DNA of 64,000 nucleotides from an uncultured Gammaproteobacteria bacterium. GTDB taxonomy: Bacteria; Patescibacteriota; Microgenomatia; Levybacterales; GWA1-39-11. The DNA lies in assembly GCA_964409875.1 (NCBI GenBank), contig CAYPEN010000002.1, positions 1,067-65,066 of the forward strand. Direction: 5' to 3'. Within the stretch, counting starts at the first letter, position 1, and each line of letters opens with the position of its first letter. Shown piece by piece: positions 3,075-57,319 of this stretch. The position numbers and the translations under genes are program-made. A model generated the notes under the pieces. That model saw nothing but the letters and a program-made list of their open reading frames with translations, searched no databases and was not told the origin of the DNA.

Positions 3075-3166
3075 TAGCCCCACCCCTTCTGTTTGAAGAG
3101 GTGGGGCCGTTGGTGTCCTTAGTTTTATTACAAAACCATGGACGCTTGCGAAAGATCTAGTCGTCA
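3075..3166. repeat. Repeat A copy 2 (hairpin-containing, terminator-like)
   Basis: Matches 1412-1507. It is immediately downstream of the minus-strand gene 3157..3447. Confidence 0.6.
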
Positions 3167-3447
3167 GACTGGGGATAGCGAGGCCGTTCTCCGGCGAGAA
3201 ACGCCTCGTAGGAGACAAACTCACCGACTGGCCCGATGTTGCTGAAGATGCGCGACGTTGCGTACACCTTCTCGATCCCAACAGCTGGTTTCCTGCCCGT
3301 AAAAGGCGTGTACTCGATGGTAGTCCTGCCTTCTCCAAGGCAATCGCGGCATACGACGCCGACACCTTTCGGTTCGGCGTAACCGCGATAGACCCCTGTA
3401 CCGCCACAAGGGCGGCACTCGACTTCGAGCTTGACTTTGTCTGTCAT
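3157..3447 (-). CDS. zinc-ribbon protein with two CxxCxGxG motifs (DnaJ-type zinc-finger-like)
   Basis: Contains CRPCGGTG and CRDCLGEG. An SD lies upstream. Confidence 0.5.
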   Translation of the reverse strand: MTDKVKLEVECRPCGGTGVYRGYAEPKGVGVVCRDCLGEGRTTIEYTPFTGRKPAVGIEKVYATSRIFSNIGPVGEFVSYEAFLAGERPRYPQSDD

Positions 3448-3477
3448 GCTTACCTTTCTGCTTTCTCCAGGACTGGA

Positions 3478-4038
3478 CTACGCCTTGGGGCCGATTTTAC
3501 CCGCCGACTGGCGGTACAGCGGAGCGACCTGCAGGATTTGACCTGATTGCGTTCCGTTAATCACAAGTGTCGCACTCGGTGCGGTGTAGCTTCCGAAATA
3601 ACTCTCAAGAAGCGCAATCGCCACCGAATAGAACTCGTCGTCTGTCTTGTAGCCGCTGGGCTTGCTGAACAAGGCGCCGGCAAGCTTCGTCCCCATAGTC
3701 TGTATCTGGTTGCTCGCGCCGGCAGGATCGGTGAAACATCCCATGACGCGGATGCCGATCACCGGATCGGGTGCCCCCTTCTCGTGGTACTCAGTCCCCG
3801 TGGGGAAGAGCGCGTCGAAAAGGACTATGACTGCCCCACCGGTGCAGCGGACACTCCGCTGTCCCGAAGGAACTGTTGAGCGTGGAATAACAGTTGGACT
3901 TTGCACAGGTTGGATAGGACCAACGGGTGCTGAGAGGGTTGGTACCGGCGTTACTGCTGGTGTCGGTTTTTCCGCTCTGTCACCGCATCCTACGGCAACA
4001 ACGGCCACCATCAAGGCGGCCACGATAACGACTTTCAT
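3478..4038 (-). CDS. putative lipoprotein (186 aa)
   Basis: Signal peptide MKVVIVAALMVAVVAVGC with a lipobox Cys. SD ggagagg upstream. Confidence 0.55.
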   Translation of the reverse strand: MKVVIVAALMVAVVAVGCGDRAEKPTPAVTPVPTLSAPVGPIQPVQSPTVIPRSTVPSGQRSVRCTGGAVIVLFDALFPTGTEYHEKGAPDPVIGIRVMGCFTDPAGASNQIQTMGTKLAGALFSKPSGYKTDDEFYSVAIALLESYFGSYTAPSATLVINGTQSGQILQVAPLYRQSAGKIGPKA

Positions 4039-4107
4039 GTGTATCCTCTCCAGTTGGGTTCGTGCCGAAAACCTCGGTCAGGTCCCCCGAGGGGGTCGTA
4101 GCCGAAG

Positions 4108-4375
4108 CTAAGCTGTTGCGAGCTGGCGAGCTGGCTCGCCCAGGAGACGCGCGTAGTAGCGCTCCTCGATCTTTTTGGCCACTGCCTCCATCGCCTTGAT
4201 GAGGTCGTGGCCGGACAGCACCTGCACGATGAGCCTGGTACCTTGCCAGAACTTGTGTTCGATGGAGACTTCTTGGCCCTCCGCCATCCTGGCGGTGTAG
4301 GTGAAGATGTCGTCCCGGATCTGAGCGGCCACCCGCAGTGCGAATGGAAGCTCGTCGTTGGTGTTGATGATCATC
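4108..4375 (-). CDS. hypothetical protein (89 aa)
   Basis: I chose the internal ATG (MIINTNDELPF...) because it has a strong SD (aaaggag) 7 nt upstream. Confidence 0.45.
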
Positions 4376-4772
4376 GTGAAGCTCCTTTGATTTCGGTGTG
4401 GGGTTGAGTTGATGGCTGGCTGTAGAGACGTGTCCATTCGAGGACCGCGTCATCCCAGAAGGGTTTGGGGCACCATTTCTGTGCCCTGAATCCCTTTGTT
4501 GTCCTTTGGAGTTCGAATGCGATTTCCTTCCCCCGCTTGAGGAAGGTTTCCGCCTTTTCGATCTCTTTGGGAGTTGGTGTTTCGGTTCCGAACTCTACTC
4601 CTCCGGCTGTTATAACCGGCAGAAAGAGAGCGTCCAAGTGCAGGAGGATGTCCTGCCCCTGGGTAAGCCTTGCGGCTTGGGAGCCCTTCGGAGGATGGAG
4701 AAATCCATACCTCCTTTCTTCCCGGCGGAAATATGTATCCACCGGAGCGCTTAGCGGAGTCGCTAAACTCAC
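4371..4772 (-). CDS. cold-shock-domain-like protein, paralog of 2308..2709
   Basis: RYGFLHPPKGS...GQDILLHLDALF. Homologous to the 2308..2709 product. Confidence 0.5.
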   Translation of the reverse strand: MSLATPLSAPVDTYFRREERRYGFLHPPKGSQAARLTQGQDILLHLDALFLPVITAGGVEFGTETPTPKEIEKAETFLKRGKEIAFELQRTTKGFRAQKWCPKPFWDDAVLEWTRLYSQPSTQPHTEIKGASR

Positions 4773-4800
4773 CTGCCTACCTACCTGATTGCCTTTCGGC

Positions 4801-4922
4801 GATACTCATCCACAATCACTTGCAGATGGCAACCAAACTACTAACCAATAACTTATAGCTACTAGCTAATAATGTTGTTGCCACCTGCAATACTTCGAAA
4901 AGTTTGAAATAAAATTCTCTCA
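4801..4922. repeat. Repeat B copy 2
   Basis: Near-identical to 2708-2830. It is followed by a promoter-like AT-rich unit homologous to 2830-3075 and 1130-1410. Confidence 0.65.
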
Positions 4923-5560
4923 TAAGGTATCTTGTGGTCTTCGCAATAAATTGTTCAGCCCAAAGATTTTCCTTGCATGCTCGTAAAAAATCTAGCATGC
5001 GACAGTTGTCGTATCGAAGATTTCTCACTTCGTTCAAAATCTTTCGCAAGTTGTTAAAGTGCAAAACAAAGCCAAAAGTATTTTTGTGCTTCAAGCTTTG
5101 TATAATTTTCTTTCTTTGCCCTTTCAAAACATGCAATACGTTTTTTCGAGGCAAAAACAGACAGAAAGTATACCAAAAAACAAGAGGAAATGCAAATACT
5201 ATGGGTTATATTTTATGTGTATTTTTGTGCTACAATCACAACTATGGAAAGAGTTGAATTGCCATCAATTGTCCAGGAGGCAAGCAAACAAATTATATTG
5301 TTTGCTGGTATAGCAGTACGACTTGCGGTATGTCCTGGAGATGATATAGCCCTCGTAAGTGGCACATTTGCAGCCGGTACCGGCCGTGACAATGGGGTCA
5401 TGAGGCAATGATGCCTACTCCACTTGAATTGGACTTAGCGGATAAAAGAAACAGGCGGTTGCCAAAAAGTCTTCGCTAGCCTCAGCCGAGATAGTCAGAC
5501 CTCGCTTAACGTCTCTATATCATAGAATTAATTGCAGCAAAGCTGTGATAACACGATGTA

Positions 5561-6550
5561 TCACGCGGCATTAAGACGGGAAAGGAAGGTGTTGTTTGCG
5601 TGTGCAACCACATTTGAAACAGCAGTCGGATACAATCCTCTATCAAGCATCCCATCCACCCATCGTTCAAAAACATCAACCGTAGCCTGGCGATAATGTG
5701 CCAGTATAATAGCACCCCTTGGAACATTCAAAGGCATGTCTTCAATATTTGCATACCAATTGAGTGGCAAAAAACCCATTTGCTCATTCCAGTCAGTTGT
5801 ATACTCACTAAAAGCTCCTCCGGGAGGCCTCACATACGGCTTGGTTGTCTGATTGAATTTTTCGACCAACCAATCCTCTGCTGCATATAAATCTTCTTTA
5901 AAAACATCCCATGTGGGAGGCACCCCTGGCACCGGTGAATTACGCTGGTCGCGGTGCGTTTCGGTATGATTACCGTATTCGACTATTTCAGAATCCGCCA
6001 ACATTTGCACCATATCGGGATACGCTTTACGCTGTTGACCTTTCATAAAATCAGTAAAGGTTATTCCCTTTTTTTGGGCAATCGCAAGTATGGTTTTTAT
6101 CGCCTGTTTGTCAAATCCATCATCAATGGTGAGGGCAACGAGCGGAGCATCCGTTTCTATCACTCGTAGTGGTTCATTAGTGCCTCGAGGGGTCTTTGTC
6201 AAATTTCTCATCTGCTCGTAGGTATATTCTGGCTTGCGAGCAATAAACTTAGTTTCTTTTCTAACCTCTTTTTTTGTCGGCTGTACAATTTCTTCTCCCC
6301 TGGCAATTCCGGGAATAACTAGTTGATGCTTTTGAGGCTGATCAACCACCGGAGTCGCTTCAGCACCCTGTTGCAAGGAATTCAATCCAGTTTTGATTTG
6401 AAACAACCGCTCTTCCGGGCTCAACGAATAGAGGCTTGCTCTTTGAGCTCTCTTACGAGCGGGTTCTTTGCTGGTTGCAATACCGATAGCAGCTGCAATG
6501 CCTCCTAGGGCAACTCTCCCAAATTTGCCTCTGTCTATTCGTCTTTCCAT
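5561..6550 (-). CDS. polysaccharide deacetylase (NodB-homology domain), N-terminally anchored
   Basis: Contains TIDDGFD, HTETHRD and an N-terminal hydrophobic segment. The start is set at ATG 6548-6550 (MERRIDRG) because the longer ORF-track frame runs through the tRNA gene. Confidence 0.8.
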   Translation of the reverse strand: MERRIDRGKFGRVALGGIAAAIGIATSKEPARKRAQRASLYSLSPEERLFQIKTGLNSLQQGAEATPVVDQPQKHQLVIPGIARGEEIVQPTKKEVRKETKFIARKPEYTYEQMRNLTKTPRGTNEPLRVIETDAPLVALTIDDGFDKQAIKTILAIAQKKGITFTDFMKGQQRKAYPDMVQMLADSEIVEYGNHTETHRDQRNSPVPGVPPTWDVFKEDLYAAEDWLVEKFNQTTKPYVRPPGGAFSEYTTDWNEQMGFLPLNWYANIEDMPLNVPRGAIILAHYRQATVDVFERWVDGMLDRGLYPTAVSNVVAHANNTFLSRLNAA

Positions 6551-6601
6551 ATGAGGTGAAATATACGCTTTTGAGTAGAAAATAGCAAGAAAAATTTTTT
6601 G

Positions 6602-6673
6602 AGCCGATGGGGAGAATCGAACTCCCGACCTATTCTTTACGAAAGAACCGCTCTGCCACTGAGCCACATCGGC
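6602..6673 (-). tRNA. tRNA-Thr (anticodon CGU)
   Basis: Cloverleaf read by eye: acceptor GCCGATG/CATCGGC, D-arm GCTC-AGTGGCA-GAGC, anticodon loop TTCGTAA, T-arm GGGAG-TTCGATT-CTCCC. CCA is not encoded. Confidence 0.85.
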
Positions 6674-6685
6674 ACAATTTAAATT

Positions 6686-6800
6686 ATAACTCAAATCTGG
6701 GGTGGCAAGCGGAGGGGGACCCCCGTCGAGCGCCCGCAACCTGAGCTTGCGAATGGTGAGGATGTCGGACGGGGAGGAGCGCAGACAGGACCCCATCGTC
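6686..6800. repeat. GC-rich element copy 1 (about 110 nt), immediately 5' of tRNA-Thr
   Basis: About 70% identical to 10612-10720 and 28697-28822. It shares the blocks ggggtggc..cgactggg/ggaggggg..ccc and gagga..gacaggacc. Confidence 0.6.
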
Positions 6801-7018
6801 AATCTTCCATACCATATTTTATATTTCCATGAGGCTACTTTTCAATCTTAAACGCCTTATTTTTCACGGAATCGCAATTTGTAACACTATTATAAACCAA
6901 AAACAAACACTTTTATGATTTTTAATTGCACAAACAGCGCTAAATACATCAATATATATCATTTGAAGCTGGGCAATATTTTCGTCTTTGATCACAATAA
7001 GTGCCCAAAGCCACAAAA

Positions 7019-8377: not shown

Positions 8378-8905
8378 TCAGAATGTCCAGTTGAGCCGAC
8401 CGCCATGCTCCTGCAGGAGCTTGACGATGTTAGCCCGATTGGGGTTGGCTCGAGCTTGGACCTTGTTCACGACCCGGATAAGGAACTCCCGAACGACTTC
8501 TTCGTCCGAGGCCTCAGAAAGACCGGAGCCGCCAAGCGATATCCCGGCCATGAACACTCCGCCGAACCAGCCGACCGCACCGATGGGAAGTACGGCTGGA
8601 CGACGAGCCCAAACCTGCGAAAGGGTTTGCTGGAAACGGTGTGTCAGCTCCGCCTTCGCCCGGGCGTTGTTCCGGAATCGCGAAGCGAGGTCGCTGTTAC
8701 CGACCTGCTTCTCCCAGAGAAATGCGCTCTCCCATGCTTCCTGCATGAGCAAGGACGTTAAACGCTCGTATGTGAGCGTCGGATTGACGAGGGAGAGGTG
8801 GAAGCCGTCCCGCTCCTGCGCTTTCATCAGATCGCGCAGCATCGGTTCAACCTCCACGAAAGCTGCTTCGCAGTCCTCGGGTGTCAGGAAAAACGGTTTG
8901 TCCAA
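8378..8905 (-). CDS. hypothetical protein (175 aa) in a high-GC island
   Basis: TTG start with SD agaaaggata upstream. The overlapping plus-strand ORF is Arg/Ser-rich and looks like an off-frame artefact. Confidence 0.4.
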   Translation of the reverse strand: MDKPFFLTPEDCEAAFVEVEPMLRDLMKAQERDGFHLSLVNPTLTYERLTSLLMQEAWESAFLWEKQVGNSDLASRFRNNARAKAELTHRFQQTLSQVWARRPAVLPIGAVGWFGGVFMAGISLGGSGLSEASDEEVVREFLIRVVNKVQARANPNRANIVKLLQEHGGRLNWTF

Positions 8906-9016
8906 GATTTATCCTTTCTGTTAGTTGGGCTTGTCCGAAGGCTTCGGACACGAGCACGGCTTCCGCCGCCGGACAATTTGCCGTTGTTATCCCTCGCTAT
9001 CGCGAGGCTGGTCGAG

Positions 9017-9466
9017 TCACGCTCGTCGGCGAGCGTGGGTAGGAAGCGCGATTCTGGGATGGCGAATGTAGCATTCGCAACCCGTGTGCATATCGCGCAG
9101 CGCAAAAGCGACGTGGGCCGTATAGACGGGCCCGTCCGCCTCGGGAAGGATGATGACCGGCTCGACACTTCCGGTCTTTTCAACCTCACCGTCTCGCGGG
9201 TCGCTTTTGGCTGTCCAGGAGAGACTTACGACGAGCTCACGCCCATTAAAGCCTATCTCCCGGATTTCTCCCCACAGGTCACCGATGCGCTTTGGGCGCC
9301 GAACCTGCAGGAGCATGCCGGAAAGTTCCCGGCACGCAACGAAGTCTGCCCAGGGTATCGCAGTGAACACATGTCCTCCTGTTATACCCCGCCTCACAAT
9401 TTCCGTATAAGAAACTCTGAGGCAAGGTAAACAGAAAGTGTTTTTGCACGTTCTGTTAAAGAGCAA
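9017..9466 (-). CDS. hypothetical protein (high-GC island)
   Basis: The most protein-like frame in this stretch. The start is uncertain. Confidence 0.25.
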   Translation of the reverse strand: MLFNRTCKNTFCLPCLRVSYTEIVRRGITGGHVFTAIPWADFVACRELSGMLLQVRRPKRIGDLWGEIREIGFNGRELVVSLSWTAKSDPRDGEVEKTGSVEPVIILPEADGPVYTAHVAFALRDMHTGCECYIRHPRIALPTHARRRA

Positions 9467-10343: not shown

Positions 10344-11228
10344 CTAAGAAAAACGCTCTCTTAGAACTGCATATGCAAATCTTGGCAACGCAAGTTGTCT
10401 TTTAATTCTCCACGGCTGCATTGCAAGTCGGAATGCCCACTCCATCCCCATATCTCTCATAAACTTTGGTGCTCGTCTCACTTTCCCCGATACATAATCA
10501 AAAGCACCCCCTACTCCCATAGCAACTGTTACATCGATACTATCAAGATTTTTTGCAATCCACTCCTCCTGCTTTGGCGCACCGAAGGCAACAAAAAGGA
10601 TATCTATATGGGGTCTGGTAAGGGGTGGCTCGACTGGGGGACCCCCATTGTCCACCCGCAACCCAAACGAAGCGCGTGGTGAGGATGACGAATGGGGGTG
10701 AGGAGAGACAGGACCCCAAACTTCATTCTTCCACTTTTCACCTACAAAAACTACTCTAAGCCCCGGGTACTTTTCACGCAAGCACTCCGAAGCCTTCTCT
10801 GCTACACCCCTACTACCCCCTAAAAAGCCTATGTTAATAGGACGATTTGATGCTACAGCACATATTTTTTCCATTAGATCGGTACCAGTTATTCGTCCTA
10901 TAATTTTCTTTTTGAGTATCCTACCGGCTATGAGTACACCTATCCCATCGGGAAGGCTGAGGGTAGCACCATTTAGAACGTCTTGGAACCTCTTTGAGCG
11001 TGTGCCTAACATCAAAATTTCGGGATTTGGTGTTACTATATAGAATTTTTTTGAAGGGTTTTCCAGTCTTTTGAAGATATACTCTAAGACTTCACTTTCG
11101 GAAGCTGTCGTTATATCGGTTCCTAATATTTTTACGGAAGGTAAATTTTTTCCCATACTATACACTTTTTCGATTCTTTTCGTATGATTTTTCAAAGCTC
11201 TCTGTTGTTCATTTTTTTTACCCCTCAA
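10344..11228 (-). CDS. WecB/TagA/CpsF-family glycosyltransferase carrying an in-frame GC-rich insertion
   Basis: Contains ILGTDI...IVTPNPE...DGIGV...ILFVAFGAPKQEEWI. The true start may be the internal MGKNLPSVKILG. The insertion lies at 10612-10720. Confidence 0.75.
   Translation of the reverse strand: MRGKKNEQQRALKNHTKRIEKVYSMGKNLPSVKILGTDITTASESEVLEYIFKRLENPSKKFYIVTPNPEILMLGTRSKRFQDVLNGATLSLPDGIGVLIAGRILKKKIIGRITGTDLMEKICAVASNRPINIGFLGGSRGVAEKASECLREKYPGLRVVFVGEKWKNEVWGPVSPHPHSSSSPRASFGLRVDNGGPPVEPPLTRPHIDILFVAFGAPKQEEWIAKNLDSIDVTVAMGVGGAFDYVSGKVRRAPKFMRDMGMEWAFRLAMQPWRIKRQLALPRFAYAVLRERFS
10612..10720. repeat. GC-rich element copy 2, in frame inside the glycosyltransferase CDS
   Basis: Encodes VWGPVSPHPHSSSSPRASFGLRVDNGGPPVEPPLTRPH, placed where TagA homologs have a short acidic helix. 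Confidence 0.6.
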
Positions 11229-14113: not shown

Positions 14114-14234
14114 ATTATTGCTAATAGTCAATAGTCGATAGCTAATAGTCAAAACTATTATTTCAAATTATTCATTTAACTTAATGCTTCCCACTACTAG
14201 CTTTTTGCTCTTAACTATTAGTTTTTAAGTTAAT

Positions 14235-14266
14235 CCGGGGCGCTGAGTTGTGCTCAAACGCCCCGG
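14235..14266. terminator. GC hairpin ccggggcg...cgccccgg
   Basis: 8-bp GC stem downstream of the minus-strand operon. It is the left boundary of a high-GC island. Confidence 0.5.
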
Positions 14267-14282
14267 AAGGAACAGGTCAGTG

Positions 14283-14699
14283 CTAGCCGTGGCCCTGAAG
14301 GAGGACCTCGTTTTGCATAGCTGCGGCAAAGGCCGGAGTCAGCTGGTCAGGACGGATGTCCACGGGTTCACCCGGATGGTGAACCTCTCCATGCAGCTGA
14401 AGATCCGAACGAAGCCTTGCAAGATCAGCCACAGGCAAACCGAGTGCCGTGGCCGTTTTGGCGTCTTGCCTCTCTCGCGCCCTGCGCTCTCGGCCGTTCA
14501 CCCAGCGGTGAAGCTGGAAGAGCAAAACCTCCGCCTCCCTGAGCTTTTCAGGCTCAAATTGGAGAAGGATTTCGCCTTCCCCGCCGGCCTGCTTGAGCTC
14601 ATCGTTCTCGACTCGGGTCCGAAAACCCTCGTCGCTGTAGATGCGAGCCAGCTGTAGGGCCAGCTCAAGGACGTCTTTGTCAGGAATAATATCAGTCAC
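14283..14699 (-). CDS. hypothetical protein (138 aa, GTG start), high-GC island
   Basis: SD aaggaagagg upstream of the GTG. Confidence 0.45.
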   Translation of the reverse strand: MTDIIPDKDVLELALQLARIYSDEGFRTRVENDELKQAGGEGEILLQFEPEKLREAEVLLFQLHRWVNGRERRARERQDAKTATALGLPVADLARLRSDLQLHGEVHHPGEPVDIRPDQLTPAFAAAMQNEVLLQGHG

Positions 14700-14744
14700 T
14701 CTGCCTCTTCCTTACTGGTGGAAGAACCGGAAGCCGTAGTCGGC

Positions 14745-15065
14745 TTAGTGTTCTTCCATGAGCTGCCGGTCGAGCCGGATTTGCTGCGCCACCCTTCTCT
14801 CGTGCCGTCCTTTTTCAAGAGCACAAACAGCTCCCTCAATGAAGCTCACCACGAAATAAAGGAGAAGTGCCCAAAGGGCTCCTGCCGTAACCCAGAGGAT
14901 TGCGGACGGAAACACAGCCCCACCACTGATAAAAACGCCCGATGTGGCGAGTTGTGGCAGGGTCATCCACCTGATGGTTTTCTGGCCAAGCTTGTAAGCC
15001 TGCCATACTCCCACGAGTGGCAAGGAGAGCACGAAGAGCATCTCCCAGAACGCAAGTTCGCTCAT
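14745..15065 (-). CDS. hypothetical membrane protein (106 aa)
   Basis: Three hydrophobic helices. SD aaaaggaaac upstream. Confidence 0.45.
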   Translation of the reverse strand: MSELAFWEMLFVLSLPLVGVWQAYKLGQKTIRWMTLPQLATSGVFISGGAVFPSAILWVTAGALWALLLYFVVSFIEGAVCALEKGRHERRVAQQIRLDRQLMEEH

Positions 15066-15547
15066 CTTGTTGTTTCCTTTTCGAAGCTGAGGCGCTCAGC
15101 CGTTTCGGGCTGGGTGCCAACGTAGATGGTCATCTTTCCTTGGTAGGAAGGATATGTCTTGACGATGTCCTGAGCGATGGTTGCCGCTTCGGTTTTTACT
15201 TCGAGGGCGCTTTTGAAAGGCGTCACCTCATTGTGTTGATACAGAACTTCCTTGACTTGTTCATAGAACATGTCGAGGGTTTGTGGGGCCACGAACAAAG
15301 CGGGGTCTACACACGCGGTGAAAACCAACCCGGTAACGGTGACATTCTTCCCGTTCCCGCCTGTAACGGTAAAATGAGCATGTTGCAGCTCTTTTTTTAC
15401 CGGTGACAGTTTCTTGCACGACGTAAGTGGCGTGCCGACGGCGATGTACGAGGCCTTTGGAGAACTCGTACTGTGGTCTACGGAGTAGGCCAGGACGACG
15501 GCGCATAACGCCAAAATAATGATGCTGATTGAGATGCGGGGTCCCAT
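15062..15547 (-). CDS. hypothetical secreted protein (161 aa)
   Basis: Start at MGPRISISIIILALCAVVLAYS (signal peptide) with SD gggagaggaaga upstream. Confidence 0.45.
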   Translation of the reverse strand: MGPRISISIIILALCAVVLAYSVDHSTSSPKASYIAVGTPLTSCKKLSPVKKELQHAHFTVTGGNGKNVTVTGLVFTACVDPALFVAPQTLDMFYEQVKEVLYQHNEVTPFKSALEVKTEAATIAQDIVKTYPSYQGKMTIYVGTQPETAERLSFEKETTR

Positions 15548-15816
15548 GTCTTCCTCTCCCTGGAAGTGTCTGGTGCAGGGCATTTCTGTCCTGCGGGTTC
15601 GGATACTGACCTGTTGTTAATGTGCGTGAGCGCAAAACGCGCGCCCAGCATGCAAAAAAACACCAGGCGGCGCAATGCGCCAAACATCAAATTATATCAA
15701 AAAACACAATCCATTTCAAATACTACGGGATAGTATTTGAGGCTGACATATGCACTTGTAAGTTGAATAAAAATACTAAATACTAAAGGTACAACCGTTT
15801 TTAACGGCTTTATTCT

Positions 15817-26638: not shown

Positions 26639-27480
26639 TTTTTTACCCACCACTTTACTCCATCGGAAATAATTTCTACGTCGCCTTTGAGCGTATTTCT
26701 AGTGGGGATACCATGCTGTTGTAACAGCTTTATGACTTCAGGAGCAGGATGATGATACCGGTTGTGATAGCCGTAGGAAAGAACTGCCAACTTTGGAACC
26801 AAATGCTGAAATGTAAATTCATCCACTCCAGTTTTTGAACCATGATGAGGTGGTTTAAACACATCAAGACTATCTATCAGGGGCATAATTGAGTTCAAAT
26901 ATGTCGATGGTATATCACCATCTAATAAAGCCCTAAATTTGTTATACCGAACCATCTGTACCAATGAGTAATCATTTGTGTCTTTACTCTTCTGATTGAG
27001 AAATTCCTGCGTTGGCCAAAATGTATCAATAGTGATCCCATCAGGAGATTTCAAAACGTCACCCCTAAAAACATAATGCACGGGTATATTTTCTTTTTTT
27101 AATATTTTCATCAACTCCTCATAAACACCTGTGTCTTTTGGAGCTTTTGACGTTCCAAAAAATGATACATTATAGGATTTTATAACTCCGATAAGACCTG
27201 TTAAATGGTCGGCATCAGGATGAGTCATAAAAACCGCTTCAATTTTTCTATCCCAAAATGGCAGATGACGGGAAAGACACTTTGTCATTGAATTTTCTCG
27301 TGGTCCTCCATCAATAATGACATCAATTCCTTGAGGACTCCTTATCAATATGCCGTCCCCTTGACCGACGTTACAAAAAATTAGATGAAAATTGTTATCA
27401 GAGAACCTCACCAAGTGATAGCTACTAAAAAGTGCTAAAACGGCACATGATAACAGCAAAAACATCAAAATTCGCCTCAT
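26635..27480 (-). CDS. comEC: ComEC/Rec2 metallo-beta-lactamase domain protein (separate ORF)
   Basis: HPDADHLTGL in an MBL-fold. It has its own N-terminal hydrophobic segment. Overlaps the upstream ORF by ATGA. Confidence 0.75.
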   Translation of the reverse strand: MRRILMFLLLSCAVLALFSSYHLVRFSDNNFHLIFCNVGQGDGILIRSPQGIDVIIDGGPRENSMTKCLSRHLPFWDRKIEAVFMTHPDADHLTGLIGVIKSYNVSFFGTSKAPKDTGVYEELMKILKKENIPVHYVFRGDVLKSPDGITIDTFWPTQEFLNQKSKDTNDYSLVQMVRYNKFRALLDGDIPSTYLNSIMPLIDSLDVFKPPHHGSKTGVDEFTFQHLVPKLAVLSYGYHNRYHHPAPEVIKLLQQHGIPTRNTLKGDVEIISDGVKWWVKN

Positions 27481-28694
27481 TTTATTTTTACTCTGCTCTT
27501 ACTTACCTGAATTACTAATGCAAACAATATCAAATAGTAACCTCCAACAAGTGTTGCTGGGAGATTATCGACAGAAATCTGACTACCCAAGCCTGAGAAG
27601 AATACTATTATACCGGTAAAGTACGCCAAAAATGGATAACATAGGAGCATAAACGGCAATGCGAGCGTAGGAGAAATAATGGAGACAATTGCGCCTATCC
27701 CGCCAAAAATCATAATAACCGGTATGGTCCATAGAACCAAGATGTTGATAGGAAATGAAAGCAATGAATACGCTCCAAATGAGGCCAACATCACAGGAAA
27801 TGTTGCTATCTGAGCCGAAAGTGTAGTTGTTATATCATCTTTGATAAAAGCTACACGCCGCCACGTGCCTAGTCCATCCAATATTGGTTTTATTGTGAGT
27901 ATCCCCAACGTTGAAAGAAATGAAAGCTGGAATGAAATGTCGGCAATCTCACCCGGCTGGAAAAATACCATACCCCAAGCAGTAAGAAACAACGCATACA
28001 GACTGCTTGTTTGCCTCCCTGCAAGTTGCCCTGCAAATGCCATAATTGCCATGACCGCAGCTCTTACAATGGGCGGGTCAAATCCGGTCAGGGTGGCATA
28101 TCCCATAATCCCCAAAATCGTGAAAAGTAATGCAAGTTTTCTTTTCACAAGCCTCAAAAAAATTGCTAAAAGAAGTCCCGCGGCGATACTTACATTTTGT
28201 CCTGAGGCTGCGATGACGTGCAAAACTCCCGCCTTTTTAAGAAGCGCATAATACTCATTATCTATCTTGTCCCGCACTCCCAAAACAACACCTAACAATA
28301 GTCCCGCTTCCCTTTCCGGCAACACCTTAATCGCCGCCTCCTCGACCCTTTCTCTTATAAATTTTGATAGTAAAAGTACGACATCCGTTTTCTCGATTTT
28401 TGATATAACCGGATTTTGGACAACCAAAAGCTCTCCTTTGTCACTCTTCTTTTTGGAAATGATACCATCTATAGACACCGTATCCCCATACCGGTATGTC
28501 GGATACAAAGCCGTTGTTACCATTATCCCGTCGACAAAAAAGTACTGGGAGTGGTTATTCTTCTTCGGTTCGTGAGTTATGCTATAGGTTTTTTTGAATG
28601 GCTCGTTTTCTCTATAAATATGCCGCTCATTAAAATAGAAAAACTCCCGTGTTGTAAGCAACAAAAGAAGAATAAAAATAAATAAATACTTCAT
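27477..28694 (-). CDS. comEC: ComEC/Rec2 competence membrane-channel domain protein
   Basis: Polytopic membrane profile with VIAASGQNVSI (competence domain). Start set at MKYLFIF because the upstream extension is a GC-rich repeat element. Confidence 0.75.
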   Translation of the reverse strand: MKYLFIFILLLLLTTREFFYFNERHIYRENEPFKKTYSITHEPKKNNHSQYFFVDGIMVTTALYPTYRYGDTVSIDGIISKKKSDKGELLVVQNPVISKIEKTDVVLLLSKFIRERVEEAAIKVLPEREAGLLLGVVLGVRDKIDNEYYALLKKAGVLHVIAASGQNVSIAAGLLLAIFLRLVKRKLALLFTILGIMGYATLTGFDPPIVRAAVMAIMAFAGQLAGRQTSSLYALFLTAWGMVFFQPGEIADISFQLSFLSTLGILTIKPILDGLGTWRRVAFIKDDITTTLSAQIATFPVMLASFGAYSLLSFPINILVLWTIPVIMIFGGIGAIVSIISPTLALPFMLLCYPFLAYFTGIIVFFSGLGSQISVDNLPATLVGGYYLILFALVIQVSKSRVKIK

Positions 28695-28696
28695 AT

Positions 28697-28822
28697 AGAT
28701 GTGGGGTGGCGCGACTGGGCCCAGTTGAGAACCTAACGCAAGCGAACCCATAATCTTCTCATAAGTAGAGCGGGCGGCAAGGCTTGCAAACTGGGTGCAG
28801 GAGCGACAGGACCTCACCGATT
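28697..28822. repeat. GC-rich element copy 3, between comEA and comEC
   Basis: Homologous to 6686-6800 and 10612-10720. Confidence 0.55.
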
Positions 28823-29488
28823 TTACTCGACCGTTATCTTATCCTTTAGCCCGTCAAATGTCTTTTGACCAAGAATCTTCTTCGTAACCAAGTCTTCAAT
28901 CTTGCTGTACGGCCTACCTGATATGATCTTTTGAGCTGTCACCTGCCCCACTTTAGGAAGAGAATCAAGTTGATTAACAGTTGCAGAATTTATATTAATC
29001 AGGCCAGAGTTGTCACCAACTGTCAAATTAGCACCATCGTTTGAGTTCAAATTTTGCTCTACTGATGTAACTGTAGTTGTTTGCTCGCCTTTTTGCGGAA
29101 TGTACACCTTTGCTCCGTCTATAAGCTTTTGGGCTAAATTAAAATGTTTTGATACATAATCTCTATCTGCTGTAGAGCTCATTCCTCCCGAGGCTATAAG
29201 CGCGTCTTGAACCCTTGCCCCTTCCCTTAATTTGTAAACTCCGGGTTTTTGAACTGCACCTTCTATATCAATAGAAATTTCCTTTGTGCTTGCTGTGCCT
29301 GCAACTGCCTTTGTGTCCGAAGGTACAAAAACAGCTTCATCTTTTGTGCTTTTTGTACTCAAGTATTGGAAAACTCCTATCAACAAAAGAAGGACACCAA
29401 GGCAAATTAGGCCTACAAATAATGGGTTGTTGCGGACAAACTCTTCCCCTCTTTTTACAAAAGATTTCTTCTCAGTTTCCTCCTCCAT
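28823..29488 (-). CDS. comEA: competence protein ComEA (TM, SLBB, helix-hairpin-helix)
   Basis: C-terminal INSATVNQLDSLPKVGQVTAQKII HhH motif. Confidence 0.8.
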   Translation of the reverse strand: MEEETEKKSFVKRGEEFVRNNPLFVGLICLGVLLLLIGVFQYLSTKSTKDEAVFVPSDTKAVAGTASTKEISIDIEGAVQKPGVYKLREGARVQDALIASGGMSSTADRDYVSKHFNLAQKLIDGAKVYIPQKGEQTTTVTSVEQNLNSNDGANLTVGDNSGLININSATVNQLDSLPKVGQVTAQKIISGRPYSKIEDLVTKKILGQKTFDGLKDKITVE

Positions 29489-29529: not shown

Positions 29530-32500
29530 TTAAATTACAACATTCACAATCTTGCCGGGGATATATATGACTCTTTTGACCGTAACACCTTCTGTGTGTT
29601 TTGAAACTGCCTCAAGCGCTCTCTTTTCCGCTTCTTTTTGGTCTGTAATCTTAGAGCTTTCAAGCTCGAATTCTCCTCTTTTTTTGCCGTTCACCTGAAC
29701 GATAATAAGGACCGTATCTAAAACAAGCTGCTTTTGGTCGAACTTTGGCCACTCTTGCAGATGAATTGAGCTGTTATTTCCCAGCATATTCCATAATTCC
29801 TCAGTCATATGAGGCGCGAAAGGTGCCAAGAGCCTAAGGTAGGTATTGGCTTCTAATTTAGTTATGTCTTTCTCCTTATTAAGCGCGTTATACCATTCCA
29901 TAAGCTTTGCAATGGCTGTGTTATATCCAAATTCTTCTATATCTTTTGTTACTCCTTGTATAGTTTTGTGCATCAAACGAGCTCTTTCACTACTCAACTC
30001 TTCATTTTCTCCTACTCTTTCTGACAACAGCTTCCATACTTTGCGGATAAACCTTCCCATACCCTCAATACCACTATCCCGAAAGTCCCCTCCATCGCTA
30101 TATGGCCCTAAAAACATCAAATAAGTTCTTAATGTATCGGCGCCATACTTTGATATATATTCATCCGGAACGACCACATTTCCCTTACTTTTACTCATTT
30201 TTGCACCGTCTTTTATGATAAGTCCATGTGCGAAGAAGTTGGTAAATGGCTCCTCAAAATCTATAAATTTCAAATCACATAATACCATCGTGACAAAACG
30301 TGAATACAAGAGGTGTAGCACAGAATGCTCTGCTCCGCCAATATACTGGTTGACCGGTAACCACTTTTTAGTCCTTTCTGTATCAAAAGCTACATTTTCT
30401 ACATCAGTACTCGGGTATCTTAAAAAATACCAACTACTATCAAGAAAAGTGTCGCTTACGTCGGTCTCTCGGGTTGCATCCCCTCCACAGTGTGGGCATT
30501 TTGTTTTATAGAACTCAGGATGGTTGGCAAGAGGTGACTTGCCGGTCCCCATTGGCTTCCAATCTGCAACATCAGGAAGAAGAACAGGGAGTTCAGCCTC
30601 AGGAACCGAGAACCAACCACTCATTCCTTCTACCTCAAATTCGCCATTTTTTTGGCAAGTTGAGCAATAAACCATCGGTATTGGAGGCCCCCAATACCGC
30701 TGGCGGGAGATGAGCCAATCCCTGAGGTGATAATTGGCCTTACGTTTCCCTAGAGCTTTCTCTTCTAGCCAATTTAAAACCTTTCCCATTTCCTTTGGAA
30801 CCTCAAGACCGTTCCATTCTTTAGAATTAATAAGTACCCCTGCTCCTTCGTAGGGCTCTTCTGTATTCTGTCTTTTGTCTTCTGTCTTCTGAATTACCTC
30901 AATTATCGGCAAATTATATTTTTTGGCGAATGCAAAATCCCTACCATCATGCGCCGGAACGGCCATAATTGCACCCGTGCCATATCCTGAAAGCACGTAA
31001 TCGGCAACCCACACCGGAATGTTCTCTCCGTTTACCGGATTTATGGTATAAAGTCCTAAAAATACACCTGTTTTTTCCTTTCCTTCTCCCGTTCTTTCAA
31101 TTTCGTTTTTTGCCTTAGCCTTTTCAACATATGCTGCAACTTCACCTCTTATCTTTTCATCAACTCCAAAACTCCCCTCAACTATCTGAGAGACAAGCGC
31201 GTGCTCGGGAGCAACCACCATGAATGTCGCGCCAAACAATGTGTCAGGACGTGTAGTAAAGACCTTGAGGCTTTCAACAATCTCATTCAAGACGGCCGGT
31301 TCTGCCCCGTTTGTATTAAAATGAGGCGTATTGGCAGTAACTTCCACAAATTTTGCCCCAAGTCTTGCAGCAATTTCTTCCGGCTGAGAAGGAATAATTA
31401 CATCGTCGTGGAGATCTTTTAGCACGATAGCACTCCCCACTCTTTCTTTAACAGCCTCAAAATCAAATTTCCAATCACATGCTTTGGTTAATTCAGGCCT
31501 CTCAACTCCATCCAAAAACTCTGGCTTTAAAGGAGGCGCTATCATAATTAACTTATGAATATTCGTTTTCAGTTTTGGAAGTAATTTTAATGCAACATCT
31601 CCCCCCAAACTGTGGGTAACAACCACCGTCTTTGAGTCAAAGGTATGCTTTTCTAGGAGGAAATTAACTTGGGTGTCAATATCGGGGTTGCCGTTAGTTG
31701 GCAGATCATACATTTCAACTGTTGAACCCCTCTTCTCAAGTTCGGTTTTGAGCCATTGCCAAAAATCTTTTTTTTGTCCGCCATTGTGCCCATGAATAAA
31801 TATGTACTTATTCTTTGTAGCTACTTCAAATTCAACCTCTGCTCCCTCGCTTTTGCCTATCCAATTCCTCTGGGCAATTTTTACTTTCTCTGTCCAATTG
31901 AGTCCTTCGATGTTTTTAAGTAAACGATCTGCATAGTTTGTTATACGGAAAAACCATTGCTCCAGATTTTTCTTTTCAACTTTTGTTCCACAACGCTCAC
32001 AGCACCCATCTATCACTTGCTCATCAGATAAAACTGTCATGTCCTTTGGACACCAGTTGACTAATGCTGTATCGCGGTAGGCAAGTCCTGCTTTGAAAAG
32101 CTGAATAAAAAGCCATTGTGTCCATTTGTAATAATCAGGGTTATATGTCTCAACCGTCCTATTCCAATCGAATGAATTGCCGATTGAACGGAGTTGGCGG
32201 TAGAAATTCTTCTCTGCTATTTGGGCCTGAACTTTTGGGTGACGGCCCACTTTCAGTGCATAGTTTTCTGAATGGATTCCGAATCCATCAAGCCCAATCG
32301 GCTCCAAGACATCCTTCCCTTGCATCCTGTTAAACCGTGCGTATACATCAGCACCCGTAAAAGCGTACATATTGCCTACATGAAGTCCTTCTGCTGAAGG
32401 GTAAGGAAACATCATGAGGTTAAAATAGGGGTTCTTCGCTGCTGTTATATCAGGAGAAAAAGTGTTGTCACTCTCCCATTTTTCCTGCCATTTCGGTTCA

Positions 32501-32538
32501 ATTTCTGATGGATTATAGCGCGGCTCATTAACTTTCAT
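29530..32538 (-). CDS. leuS: leucyl-tRNA synthetase with inserted YdeN/RBBP9-family serine hydrolase domain
   Basis: HVGNMY (HIGH-like), KMSKSKGN and TTRPDT (editing) motifs. An extra domain of about 180 aa lies at 31258-31803. Confidence 0.9.
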   Translation of the reverse strand: MKVNEPRYNPSEIEPKWQEKWESDNTFSPDITAAKNPYFNLMMFPYPSAEGLHVGNMYAFTGADVYARFNRMQGKDVLEPIGLDGFGIHSENYALKVGRHPKVQAQIAEKNFYRQLRSIGNSFDWNRTVETYNPDYYKWTQWLFIQLFKAGLAYRDTALVNWCPKDMTVLSDEQVIDGCCERCGTKVEKKNLEQWFFRITNYADRLLKNIEGLNWTEKVKIAQRNWIGKSEGAEVEFEVATKNKYIFIHGHNGGQKKDFWQWLKTELEKRGSTVEMYDLPTNGNPDIDTQVNFLLEKHTFDSKTVVVTHSLGGDVALKLLPKLKTNIHKLIMIAPPLKPEFLDGVERPELTKACDWKFDFEAVKERVGSAIVLKDLHDDVIIPSQPEEIAARLGAKFVEVTANTPHFNTNGAEPAVLNEIVESLKVFTTRPDTLFGATFMVVAPEHALVSQIVEGSFGVDEKIRGEVAAYVEKAKAKNEIERTGEGKEKTGVFLGLYTINPVNGENIPVWVADYVLSGYGTGAIMAVPAHDGRDFAFAKKYNLPIIEVIQKTEDKRQNTEEPYEGAGVLINSKEWNGLEVPKEMGKVLNWLEEKALGKRKANYHLRDWLISRQRYWGPPIPMVYCSTCQKNGEFEVEGMSGWFSVPEAELPVLLPDVADWKPMGTGKSPLANHPEFYKTKCPHCGGDATRETDVSDTFLDSSWYFLRYPSTDVENVAFDTERTKKWLPVNQYIGGAEHSVLHLLYSRFVTMVLCDLKFIDFEEPFTNFFAHGLIIKDGAKMSKSKGNVVVPDEYISKYGADTLRTYLMFLGPYSDGGDFRDSGIEGMGRFIRKVWKLLSERVGENEELSSERARLMHKTIQGVTKDIEEFGYNTAIAKLMEWYNALNKEKDITKLEANTYLRLLAPFAPHMTEELWNMLGNNSSIHLQEWPKFDQKQLVLDTVLIIVQVNGKKRGEFELESSKITDQKEAEKRALEAVSKHTEGVTVKRVIYIPGKIVNVVI
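31258..31803 (-). other. Inserted alpha/beta serine hydrolase domain (YdeN/RBBP9-like) within leuS
   Basis: YIFIHGHNGG...FWQWLKTEL...VVVTHSLGGDVALKLL...LKDLHDDVIIP...TPHF aligns by eye with B. subtilis YdeN (IIHGY..HWFPWLKKRL..LVAHSLGC..SKDDQIVPF..HGGHF). Confidence 0.7.
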
Positions 32539-32725
32539 ATAGTAAAAGAATTGTACCAAACTTTTGCCTCAAATTATAGCCCATATGTACTTATGGTAAA
32601 ATGGCGCTGTCACTCATGCGGCCAATTCGCAAAAAGCTTGCGTTTTCGGGCTCTTGAGCAGACCGCCTAGGCTCGCCTCGGCGAGACTGGCACATTGAAA
32701 ACGCAGGAAAAGAAAGGATTAACCA

Positions 32726-32995
32726 TTGACTAAAAAGCATAAGGTTCAGCATCCGCAGCTCAACGACCTCATCAAGGCAGGGATAGTGATGGATGGCACC
32801 CTCATGATGGCCTACCACCACTACCAGGAACTCTTCGGCAGGAGAGACTCCACGGAGCACTTGTTGGAGAGGGAGAGATCTCCTCTCGAAAATCTCGTAA
32901 CCGAGATTGGCATCGCCATCGAAAAACAACAGGAGTTCCAAGCAGCCCTTACAGCATATCTCGCCTCAAACGAGTACAAAGCTGGGCAACACTAG
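32726..32995 (+). CDS. hypothetical small protein (89 aa, TTG start), high-GC island
   Basis: More protein-like than the overlapping minus-strand frame. Confidence 0.3.
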   Translation: MTKKHKVQHPQLNDLIKAGIVMDGTLMMAYHHYQELFGRRDSTEHLLERERSPLENLVTEIGIAIEKQQEFQAALTAYLASNEYKAGQH

Positions 32996-33263
32996 CCCGG
33001 GGCGGTATCCACCCCTAAGCCAACTACTCAAAAGGAGGCTGACCGAATCGACCGTCGTTTAACAACGACCCACACTCATTCCCTCTAAGGAGCAAGAACG
33101 TGGCCCACAAACCAAACGGCTTCGGACGCCTCAAAAAGCGTCCGGGTCTCCGACAAAACGGCCAGAATAGGGGGCCGGCGTGGATAGCTTCCACATCGAT
33201 GACCTCCTCAAGAGCCAACTGGAAGCTCAAACTTCAGGAACTCGGCCTGAGAAAGGTTAACAA

Positions 33264-33677
33264 GTGACACCCAACGACGAACGTACGCTTGTTCTGGTGA
33301 AGCCGGACGCGTACGCGAAGGCTCAAGAAATCGAAGAGCGGTACCGCAGGGCAGGTCTTACCATCTGCTCGCATAAGACCGTCAAGCCCACACGCCCACT
33401 CATCGAGGAGCACTATCGTGAGCACGTCGGCAAACCCTACTACAGAGGGACCGTCGAGTTCATGCTTTCAGGTGATATCTTCGCCATTGTACTCGTCGGC
33501 CCCAACGTCATTGAGCGCGTGCGGGAGCTGCATGGCCCTACTGACCCCACGAAGGCAAAACCCGGAAACATCCGGCATGACTTCGGAGGGAGGCAAATGC
33601 CGGCCAATGCTGTCCACGCGAGCGACAGCGTCGAGTCTGCAAAGCGTGAACTCGCGCTGTGGTTCCCTGGCATATAA
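33264..33677 (+). CDS. ndk: nucleoside diphosphate kinase (GTG start)
   Basis: LVLVKPDA...NAVHASDSVESAKRELALWF. The gene lies in a high-GC patch. Confidence 0.9.
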   Translation: MTPNDERTLVLVKPDAYAKAQEIEERYRRAGLTICSHKTVKPTRPLIEEHYREHVGKPYYRGTVEFMLSGDIFAIVLVGPNVIERVRELHGPTDPTKAKPGNIRHDFGGRQMPANAVHASDSVESAKRELALWFPGI

Positions 33678-33689
33678 TGCCACCTGCGT

Positions 33690-33740
33690 TCTCCCGAATT
33701 CTCGGGAGAAAAACTTGGCGGCCCGGTTCTCCGGGCCGTC
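33690..33740. terminator. Two GC hairpins (ctcccgaattctcgggag; ggcccggttctccgggcc) after ndk
   Basis: Perfect inverted repeats immediately 3' of the ndk stop. Confidence 0.55.
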
Positions 33741-33786
33741 TCAAGCCTCACTAGAATTCCCCTTTTATATCTGCTACCATGAGATT

Positions 33787-34407
33787 ATGAAGCAGCGGCA
33801 AATTATCGAAAGCTTTTCCATCATTTTGAGTGTAGCTTTTGTTTTTTTTGTGGTTCAAGCAGGTTTTAGCAATTATTCCACTTACCTGCTAGCACTTCTT
33901 ATTATCTTCTTTGCTATATATATAAGTATAAAAAAAAGGTCGAAATCTGCATCAGGTTTTTTCTCGGCAAGCCCGCTGGAATTATTTGGCATTATTACAA
34001 TAGTACTGCTAATAGTCTCGTTGACTAATGGGCTTTTCTCTCCTCTGTTCTTTTTTCTCTACTTCATTTTATTCTTACTCGCATTTATGAACGAACCGCT
34101 TACAATTTGGATTTTTGCTTTATCAGTGCTGCTCTTTTTTGTTCCGCAAGCTTCAAATAACCTCACCCCTGACACGTTTATCAAACTCGGCTCTCTTTTG
34201 CTAATTTCACCTATCGCATTTTTTGTAGGCAACGAATTGGAGCGACGTCAAATTCTGAACAGAAAAATAGAGAGCAAAACCGACGAGATTCTTCAGGAGG
34301 CTACAATTCTGAAAGAGGAAGAGGGAACAAAAAATCCTGATGAGGCCGAGGCGATTGATGAAATAATTGAAGAAGCACAATCACTTCAAGATGACATAAA
34401 GGAATAA
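33787..34407 (+). CDS. hypothetical polytopic membrane protein with acidic C-terminal tail
   Basis: Start at ATG 33787 (MKQRQIIESF). The longer track ORF overlaps ndk. Confidence 0.55.
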   Translation: MKQRQIIESFSIILSVAFVFFVVQAGFSNYSTYLLALLIIFFAIYISIKKRSKSASGFFSASPLELFGIITIVLLIVSLTNGLFSPLFFFLYFILFLLAFMNEPLTIWIFALSVLLFFVPQASNNLTPDTFIKLGSLLLISPIAFFVGNELERRQILNRKIESKTDEILQEATILKEEEGTKNPDEAEAIDEIIEEAQSLQDDIKE

Positions 34408-50959: not shown

Positions 50960-51256
50960 ATGGACACTCCTGCCCAACAGAATCAAAACCCACAAACAGT
51001 ACCACCTTGGAAACAACCACACATTCCCGTGACTCAAAAGGATATGACAGGGTTGAACCCTGTCAACTTGGAGGAATATGCATATTCAAGTTTGTCTACC
51101 TATAATAATCCTCCACAGAGACCTTGGATTGAAACAAAAACTATTCTTCAATATTTTGAATCAAGTAAAAACCCTGCCACTTCATATATGGAATTTGTCC
51201 GGATGATTGATGAAGATGAACCGGAATTATCCCTACTCACCATCGAAGATGAATAA
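50960..51256 (+). CDS. small hypothetical protein sharing its N-terminus with the 51395 gene product
   Basis: MDTPAQQNQNPQTVPP...HIPVTQKDM resembles MDPTAQQNQNPPPQTV...HLPVTPQEM, and the similarity extends to the DNA level. Confidence 0.35.
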   Translation: MDTPAQQNQNPQTVPPWKQPHIPVTQKDMTGLNPVNLEEYAYSSLSTYNNPPQRPWIETKTILQYFESSKNPATSYMEFVRMIDEDEPELSLLTIEDE

Positions 51257-51264
51257 ATAATCAG

Positions 51265-51289
51265 TTGACAGGGTTCAACCCTGTCAACT
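51265..51289. terminator. REP-like perfect palindrome gttgacaggg-ttcaa-ccctgtcaac
   Basis: 10-bp stem. Related copies at 51045-51066 and 57297-57319. Confidence 0.55.
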
Positions 51290-57296: not shown

Positions 57297-57319
57297 GTGA
57301 CAGGGTTGGACCCTGTCAC
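57297..57319. repeat. REP-like palindrome gtgacagggttggaccctgtcac overlapping a stop codon
   Basis: Same core as 51265-51289. Sits between the small anchored gene and the 1108-aa gene. Confidence 0.5.

Follow-up and report, generated by a model that had tools for sequence, protein, structure and literature searches.

A GC-rich hairpin repeat shared by CPR and Actinomycetota genomes and inserted in frame in a WecG/TagA glycosyltransferase gene

The window, by which we mean the whole 64,000-nucleotide stretch of DNA analysed here, contains three copies (c1, c2 and c3) of a short GC-rich element. The genes neighbouring them, among which is also a polysaccharide deacetylase, all lie on the minus strand. 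The copies and the features around them are as follows, the bit scores and E-values given for c1-c3 coming from a covariance model that was based on copies of other genomes.

6601-6673, minus strand: tRNA-Thr (CGU), with c1 located 25 nt upstream
6699-6794, minus strand: copy c1, 96 nt, 68% GC (46.9 bits, E 2.5e-9)
6845-6816, minus strand: promoter-like site, with c1 just downstream of it and thus between the site and tRNA-Thr
10344-11156, minus strand: WecG/TagA/CpsF-family glycosyltransferase, host of c2, 270 aa from the ATG at 11156 (PF03808, E 7e-49)
10622-10717, minus strand: copy c2, 96 nt or 32 codons, 62% GC (52.5 bits, E 1e-10)
27477-28694, minus strand: comEC (Competence domain), with its true start at the ATG at 28694
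28703-28815, minus strand: copy c3, 113 nt, 58% GC (19.6 bits, E 0.014)
28823-29488, minus strand: comEA (SLBB and HHH_3 domains), with its stop 7 nt upstream of c3

The three copies can be aligned with one another over their whole length. On the plus strand they have common ends, GGGGTGGC at the start and GACAGGACC(C/T)C at the finish, and the minus-strand reading of the element, as exemplified by c1, is GGGGUCCUGUC...GGGGGUCCCCC...GCCACCCC. Their GC content (58-68%) stands out against that of the surrounding genome (about 41%). The architecture of the wider family described below is matched in full by c1 and c2 and in its basal part by c3, a divergent member that has the same basal architecture as the other two. 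Between comEA, which stops at 28823, and comEC, which starts at 28694, the gap is filled by c3, and the same junction is empty in a relative (locus L003), where stop and start overlap in TAATG. Two open reading frames are distorted by the element: ORF 5561-6802, which passes through tRNA-Thr, is inflated by c1, and ORF 27477-28817 starts inside c3, which makes the longer comEC call an artefact of that copy. The initial annotation had suspected such inflation for the deacetylase and comEC, and had described three GC-rich copies in one orientation, one of them in frame within the glycosyltransferase gene; both descriptions hold, the second by alignment, shuffling and covariance model alike. Little can be built on its further remark that one and the same reading frame is open in all three copies, considering that c1 is open in 5/6 frames, c2 in 4/6 and c3 in 1/6, and that the number of open frames in 95 copies of the family is about that of composition-matched shuffles, for which reason we also rejected stop-codon depletion as a sign of selection.

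Copy c2 lies in frame and in sense orientation within the glycosyltransferase gene, whose Pfam match it breaks into two stretches. It encodes the peptide GPVSPHPHSSSSPRASFGLRVDNGGPPVEPP, and the insert corresponds to residues ~141-180 of the protein. Several of the 40 closest orthologues lack the insert, being 236-241 aa long with 3-6 residues at the site, and others among these 40 carry the element at the same place. In an AlphaFold model of the protein (64 homologues; mean pLDDT 89), the fold outside the insert scores above 90 and the insert, the sole low-confidence part, is a disordered loop without secondary structure between two strands. The glycosyltransferase insert is thus a true insertion. 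The comparison with insert-free orthologues had been proposed at the outset as the means of recognizing a native loop, and since such orthologues exist the loop is not native; the idea that the copy replaces a short acidic helix did not survive the same comparison, given the 3-6 residues at the empty sites and the position of the insert between two strands in the model.

The element is not read in one frame throughout these orthologues. In the window and its near relatives the peptide reads GPVSPHPHSSSS..., and in others it reads GVLSSLPPRPTSS..., which is the product of the same nucleotides after a one-base shift, so what the orthologues share is the nucleotide sequence and not the peptide. 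A protein word-index search with the insert peptide gave no candidates, and an exhaustive HMMER search with the 35-residue c2 peptide gave one unrelated repeat protein only; outside this glycosyltransferase lineage, then, the c2 peptide is essentially absent. All copies measured at the site (96, 96, 93 and 87 nt) are multiples of three with open frames. In each of the ten WecG inserts examined the element occupies the same site in the same orientation while the subtypes differ, the c1 subtype occupying the site at locus L008 and the WecG gene of a Nomurabacteria genome having a copy at this loop too. Random insertion would not predict one site and one orientation for all ten. A second, AT-rich type of insert, with peptides resembling NSKFKIQNS and TTNYKLQT, was also observed at this loop (WecG orthologues P0015, P0019-P0021, P0029, P0039 and P0040), sometimes adjoining the GC-rich element, and suggests that the loop is a hotspot for insertions.

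These results bear on whether the resemblance among the three copies could be due to chance in GC-rich sequence, or the loop be native to the glycosyltransferase. There are only three copies in the window and the similarity of c3 is weak (19.6 bits), which such an explanation would accommodate. Against it, none of 100 dinucleotide-preserving shuffles of the window contained the two-ended pattern, the model built from other genomes detects c1, c2 and c3 and nothing else in the window with E-values down to 1e-10, orthologues free of the loop were found, and the element is also present in many unrelated genes. We regard chance or a native loop as having practically no likelihood.

The wider distribution of the element was examined by scanning one genome per species with the pattern GGTCCTGTC-N40-70-GGGGGTCCCCC, which gave at least 120 matches. 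About two thirds of the matches listed have the full architecture of the window copies. Going by record labels, the hosts are Saccharibacteria, Nanosyncoccus, 'Patescibacteria group', Nomurabacteria, Solirubrobacterales, Thermoleophilaceae and other Actinomycetes MAGs, and a few low-GC MAGs labelled as other phyla (binning as labelled in the records) are also among the matches listed. A covariance model (R1) built from 69 copies recognized 92 copies in 100 loci from Patescibacteria and Actinomycetota. About 25 of these 92 lack the scan pattern and hence were not selected by it, some 14 of them being extra copies in loci chosen on account of a different copy. In several genomes an 8-kb stretch holds two or three copies; close copies occur in opposite orientations, and there is no strict strand bias. 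Across the family the element measures about 75-115 bp and has 60-85% GC, and there are subtypes common to low-GC Saccharibacteria and 70%-GC Actinomycetes MAGs, as would be expected of a horizontally moving element. The wider search that the initial annotation had called for thus reveals a dispersed multi-copy family in many genomes of two phyla, and the two points on which that annotation had let its claim depend came out in its favor, in that further copies exist and not every orthologue carries the loop.

The remaining third of the matches listed belongs to a multi-copy repeat of Streptomyces, about 105 nt in length (CTAGGTCCTGTCGTCAAACTCCCGTCGTC...GGGGGTCCCCCCGGCCGAAGGCTGGGGGAG; loci L015, L025-L027, L030, L031, L033, L037 and others), which was rejected as a family member as it has only the two scan words in common with the element, lacks the 3' end and is not detected by model R1; the one locus tested, L026, has no Rfam match. 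Adjacency to tRNA genes was likewise rejected as a rule, with three tRNA-adjacent copies only (c1 and those at two of 32 loci scanned). In viral contigs the two-ended pattern gave five matches, all of them chance or unrelated. In JGI metagenomes a 20-nt apical word of the c1 and c2 subtypes matched 52 loci, of which 51 are unrelated coding sequence and one (L146) is a true copy, so that these two subtypes are rare there. The L146 copy (2114-2293) has a nested AT-rich insertion of about 90 nt in its apical loop. Rfam searches, at the gathering threshold for the window and eight loci and at E <= 10 for the c1 region, returned no match to the element, the only matches being tRNA and an unrelated SAM riboswitch. 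Neither Rfam 15 nor the literature on CPR, Saccharibacteria or Actinobacteria that we searched describes such an element.

What unites the copies is a hairpin, for which the family consensus is GGGUCCUGUC-P2-CCCCC-variable hairpin-GGGGGUCCCCC-P2'-GCCACCC. Read in the sense of the window genes, the 5' half consists of outer covarying pairs, GGGU, a CCU bulge, G-U-C, the P2 arm (6-10 nt), 2-4 nt and CCCCC; after the variable apical hairpin, the 3' half consists of GGGGG-U-CCCCC, the 3' arm of P2, G-C-C, ACCC and the outer pairs. Ordered from the base, this gives P1 (GGGU/ACCC), the CCU bulge, a G-C pair, a pyrimidine-pyrimidine mismatch, a C-G pair, P2 and the CCCCC/GGGGG stem, beyond which lie a conserved UCCCCC loop and the variable apical hairpin. 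In most subtypes the C run of the GGGGG-U-CCCCC block is conserved as an internal loop or bulge. In c2 the conserved parts lie at these positions:

10713-10717, minus strand: 5' arm of P1 (GGGGU)
10712-10707, minus strand: CCU bulge, then G, the mismatch partner U, and C, following the 5' arm of P1
10636-10646, minus strand: GGGGG-U-CCCCC block, the G run of which pairs with CCCCC at 10698-10694 (P3)
10626-10622, minus strand: 3' arm of P1 (ACCCC), with the conserved GCC just before it at 10629-10627

Covariation, a test of which had been suggested with the first description of the copies, is strong in both P1 and P2. In 90 distinct sequences, standard pairs fill 89.5% of P1/P2 cells, compared with 33-55% when the partners are slid by 1-3 columns; 277 P1/P2 cells have changed on both sides, and none of 500 shuffles reaches the observed values. 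The mismatch covaries as well: the U of GUC and the middle C of GCC act as a pyrimidine-pyrimidine pair, found as T.C in 77 cases, C.T in 8, T.T in 6 and C.C in none, with a 5' C always facing a 3' T (8/8). The stem beyond CCCCC/GGGGG has undergone compensated changes between subtypes, such as CAUU/AAUG, CGUC/GACG and CAAAAUUU/AAAUUUUG. By inspection, a reading of the bulge as a kink-turn was rejected, since on neither strand do bulge and mismatch come in the order that such a motif requires. Fold z-scores range from -2.7 to -6.2 on both strands. Both give the same long hairpin, which is slightly more stable on the strand that is antisense to the genes of the window. G.U pairs are rare (about 1% of cells), and in the gene sense A.C and C.A mismatches outnumber them (47 vs 15), whereas the a and b subtypes have a conserved U.G in the apical stem when read in that sense; taken together, these signs single out neither one strand nor DNA or RNA as the folded species.

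The position of the copies relative to genes is varied. In low-GC (CPR) loci most copies lie within long ORFs. Hosts identified by Pfam as ordinary genes are CarB (the large chain of carbamoyl-phosphate synthase), a class I aminoacyl-tRNA synthetase, UvrD (two cases), PolA, M1 aminopeptidase N, QueA, a GatA-type amidase, the pseudouridine synthase RsuA and PriA, to which WecG is to be added; every one of these inserts is found either where two domains meet or in the middle of a domain match, which it splits. In E2 acyltransferases from an Actinomycetes MAG and from Solirubrobacterales, two copies in opposite orientations lie around the E3-binding (peripheral-subunit-binding) domain, so that both of its flexible linkers are occupied. 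In high-GC loci, codon-position GC periodicity places nine copies in frame within genes, 28 beside one coding flank, four between convergent genes and four between same-strand flanks that are in different frames, and leaves seven without coding signal. Copies within genes always lie in loops or linkers. They occur in either orientation and in five or more of the six frames, with antisense insertions (about 20) outnumbering sense ones (4-5), both in CPR (about 12 vs 3-4) and in high-GC loci (8 vs 1). Extragenic copies located 3' of genes have the opposite tendency (19 sense, 8 antisense).

Target-site duplications were not found, the flanking direct repeats of 88 copies being distributed as in a shuffled control. 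The sole case that resembles one is in locus L021, where the copy at 924-1013 has a 9-nt direct repeat, ATGATTATT, in its flanks, slightly offset from the element ends. In locus L098 (571-664) the palindrome continues into the flanks (CCAAAAAA...TTTTTTGG), as if the element lay in the loop of an older hairpin.

The hairpin invites the alternative, already raised in the initial annotation, that the element is a structured RNA: a noncoding RNA or a cis-regulatory motif (riboswitch, ribozyme, processing site or terminator) acting in the transcripts that carry it. The structural half of this idea is well founded, as the hairpin is conserved and covaries strongly and contains a conserved non-Watson-Crick pair, and one could add the conserved apical U.G in the gene sense, the prevalence of sense copies 3' of genes and the sense orientation of c1 and c3 within their transcription units. 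The functional half fares worse. The c1 region has no Rfam match even at E <= 10, the copies share no gene context, and the rarity of G.U pairs together with the A.C/C.A excess marks neither strand clearly as the folded one. At the glycosyltransferase site the copies are open and multiples of three, which argues that they are read through and not removed. A sense-acting regulatory RNA in particular is unlikely in view of the two orientations found within coding sequence. Overall, we consider a structured RNA quite improbable.

Removal from RNA or protein, in the manner of an intron or intein, would account for conserved genes being interrupted at defined points. One host gene does contain a true intein as well: the UvrD gene of a Saccharimonadales genome (L032 1616-4786, minus strand) has Intein_splicing and Hint matches and, downstream of them, a hairpin copy located between the helicase and Tudor domains. 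However, no self-splicing intron or intein is known that is as small as the element, no Rfam intron model matches it, copies of it also lie between genes, and the preservation of frame in the measured glycosyltransferase-site copies would be needless if they were spliced. We give an intervening sequence of this kind hardly any credence.

The history of orthologous copies is informative in two directions. Filled and empty orthologous sites are both found, at the c2 site among WecG orthologues and at the c3 junction, which is empty in L003. Where the c2 subtype has been retained in WecG (six genomes, proteins 61-89% identical), it has changed little. In pairs among the window, L003 and L007, the element is 87-92% identical (third codon positions 81-94%), compared with 64-66% for the rest of the gene (third positions 47-49%). 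Between two WecG clades the outermost P1 pair has switched from G-C to C-G, one P2 pair from U-A to G-C, and the mismatch from U.C to C.U or U.U, and P3 has decayed in three orthologous copies (L003, L186 and L188). Other subtypes, including that of c1, occupy the same WecG site in the same orientation in other orthologues. Flanking synonymous sites are saturated and the element is conserved, which implies that the nucleic acid itself is under selection or has undergone gene conversion repeatedly. Judged from these sequence comparisons, the conservation of c2 does not fit a freely decaying passenger and points either to conversion between genomic copies or to a hairpin that is selected where it stands.

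It is possible, then, that the host itself keeps the hairpin, either as DNA or RNA bound by a conserved protein (with a role in nucleoid organization, recombination or repair, or mRNA stability or pausing) or as a cassette supplying flexible linkers, with purifying selection acting on the copies in place. Besides the excess of conservation over flanking synonymous sites in orthologous WecG genes, such an explanation would draw on the compensatory changes that have maintained P1 and P2 between the two clades, on the loop nucleotides and covarying non-canonical mismatch that are conserved across phyla, on the occupation, at several loci, of the two E2 linkers that flank the E3-binding domain and on the biased orientation relative to genes. 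However, association with particular genes is inconsistent, close relatives apparently manage without copies, P3 has decayed in the three orthologous copies mentioned, multi-copy dispersal and cross-phylum subtypes have a selfish appearance, and gene conversion between copies could equally give the high identity. We hold retention by the host to be unlikely; its chief support is the conservation of the orthologous copies. A related proposal, on which we are similarly doubtful, is that the hairpin is a nucleic-acid signal under purifying selection in place, also within coding sequence, and read by a conserved protein, with element and protein exchanged between CPR/Saccharibacteria and Actinomycetota. 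The known hosts of Saccharibacteria fall within Actinomycetota.

On balance, we think it probable, with considerable room for doubt, that the three copies are instances of a non-autonomous selfish hairpin repeat, similar in kind to Rickettsia palindromic elements (RPEs) or REPINs, which is tolerated at sites where the encoded peptide is harmless. A selfish repeat agrees with the dispersal of the copies, their lack of association with particular genes, the use of both orientations, the filled and empty sites and the occurrence of subtypes across phyla; much the same evidence (a dispersed family, unrelated genes, both orientations, filled and empty sites) upholds the initial suggestion of a small mobile or miniature element tolerated within coding sequence. 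Counted against a selfish repeat are the lack of a longer autonomous version and of target-site duplications, the presence of only three copies in 64 kb, the rarity of the c1 and c2 subtypes in JGI metagenomes, the same-site inserts of WecG, the slow change of the element and the antisense bias within genes.

If the element is selfish, it could have spread and persisted in the following way. First, the conserved base of the hairpin would be recognized by a putative trans-acting enzyme. This would most likely be a transposase or nuclease that is specific for structure, as for REP/REPIN or IS200/IS605-type hairpins, and it would copy or move the element without target-site duplication. From its analogy with REP/REPIN-RAYT, IS200/IS605 and attC, the combination of bulge and covarying mismatch at the hairpin base suggests recognition by such an enzyme. 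Second, an insertion within a gene would survive only if some 30 codons stay open and give a flexible peptide rich in Gly, Pro, Ser, Ala and Arg, and the survivors would come to lie in a surface loop or an inter-domain linker, as in WecG here. Third, c1 would have entered the stretch that separates the promoter from the tRNA-Thr gene, and c3 the formerly overlapping comEA/comEC junction, each becoming a co-transcribed passenger. Finally, the element may be GC-rich because its hairpin has to be stable, and perhaps because it arose in high-GC Actinomycetota.

The two ends of the element pair with each other as P1, of which only GGGU/ACCC is constant, and no longer element with the same ends, such as would constitute an autonomous version, was found in the 64-kb window. 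Islands of about 1 kb with 55-63% GC in a background of about 41% (1-1000, 1600-2400, 3200-4800, 8400-9400, 14200-15600 and 32600-33800) were considered as autonomous parents and rejected, as their ends are unlike those of the element and they contain small ORFs and an NDK gene. These ORFs lie on both strands and have no Pfam match except for nucleoside diphosphate kinase (33264-33677). The AT-rich spacers between the first islands are themselves repeated (2709-2844 vs 4802-4937, 92%; 1416-1466 vs 3075-3125, 94%). Elsewhere in the window, a near-perfect palindrome of 21-24 nt, TGACAGGGTTGAACCCTGTCA, occurs three times (51045-51068, 51266-51289 and 57298-57321) and has weak covariance-model scores as a bare P1-like stem. 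The leucyl-tRNA synthetase ORF (29530-32559, minus strand, 1009 aa) contains what appears by eye to be an internal alpha/beta-hydrolase-like segment (HGHNGG...THSLGG), and a long coding region at 39500-46600, rich in internal direct repeats (50-250 nt, families D1-D6), presumably encodes a large repeat-rich surface protein.

If the repeat is indeed selfish, reduced CPR genomes carry so far unlisted hairpin repeats that reshape essential proteins at their loops and linkers, in the manner of RPEs in Rickettsia, and high-GC Actinomycetota share that same family. For annotation, the element inflates ORF calls, lengthens conserved enzymes by about 30 residues and creates GC-rich islands that resemble RNA genes; for evolution, it provides disordered linkers and may serve to mark DNA exchange between CPR and Actinomycetota. 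Mechanistically, the conserved hairpin and covarying mismatch would imply a putative structure-specific enzyme. Were the hairpin instead a signal under selection, it would be part of a structure-specific DNA or RNA recognition system that spans phyla and also supplies protein linkers. In either case, an element that changes much more slowly than the neighbouring synonymous sites calls for an explanation of its own.

Among known systems, integron attC sites and IS200/IS605 hairpins resemble the family in being recognized by structure as single strands, with bulges or mismatches serving as marks of identity and with compensated stems. Integron attC sites have R''/L''...L'/R' boxes (RYYYAAC...GTTRRRY) and lie in cassette arrays. 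The R and L boxes are absent from the family consensus and its contexts are core genes and not cassette arrays, so that identity with attC was rejected. The IS200/IS605 type differs in that the family consists of a single hairpin instead of a left-end and right-end pair and has no strict strand bias. With bacterial MITEs (Correia, ERIC, Coxiella QMITE and Nezha), some of which are inserted in frame in ORFs (PMC10969869, PMC5896051), the family has in common that it comprises small non-autonomous repeats with inverted ends. Its terminal inverted repeat, however, is the short P1 only, with outer pairs that vary between copies, and the missing target-site duplications led us to reject a classical MITE.

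REPs are 20-40 bp long, have a GTAG or CGTC tag and are extragenic (PMC3733652). The family shares with REPs and REPINs the primacy of structure over sequence, long imperfect hairpins, the lack of target-site duplication, a high copy number in some genomes and frequent location at gene ends and inside operons. It differs in being one hairpin of about 95 bp, in having no GTAG or CGTC tag and in often being intragenic, and by these same properties of size, tag and position its identity with REPs was rejected.

The closest functional parallel is found in the Rickettsia palindromic elements described by Ogata et al., which are inserted in frame in many metabolic genes (reviewed in PMC10969869). 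Like RPEs, for which a length of ~100-150 bp is typical, the copies are dispersed palindromes that lie in frame in unrelated housekeeping genes and encode a peptide compatible with the fold; in both cases there are extragenic copies too, and no transposase is known for either. Unlike RPEs, the hairpin family is GC-rich, occurs in AT-rich as well as 70%-GC hosts of two phyla and is not specific to Rickettsia, its base carries a bulge and a covarying pyrimidine mismatch, and its orthologous copies outlast synonymous sites. The resemblance would be functional only, homology with RPEs not being expected given the hosts and the GC content of 60-85%. In summary, in-frame palindromic repeats are already known as a kind, and the present family appears to be new as a family; it is unusual in spanning two phyla, in having a defined structural signature and in outlasting the saturation of synonymous sites.
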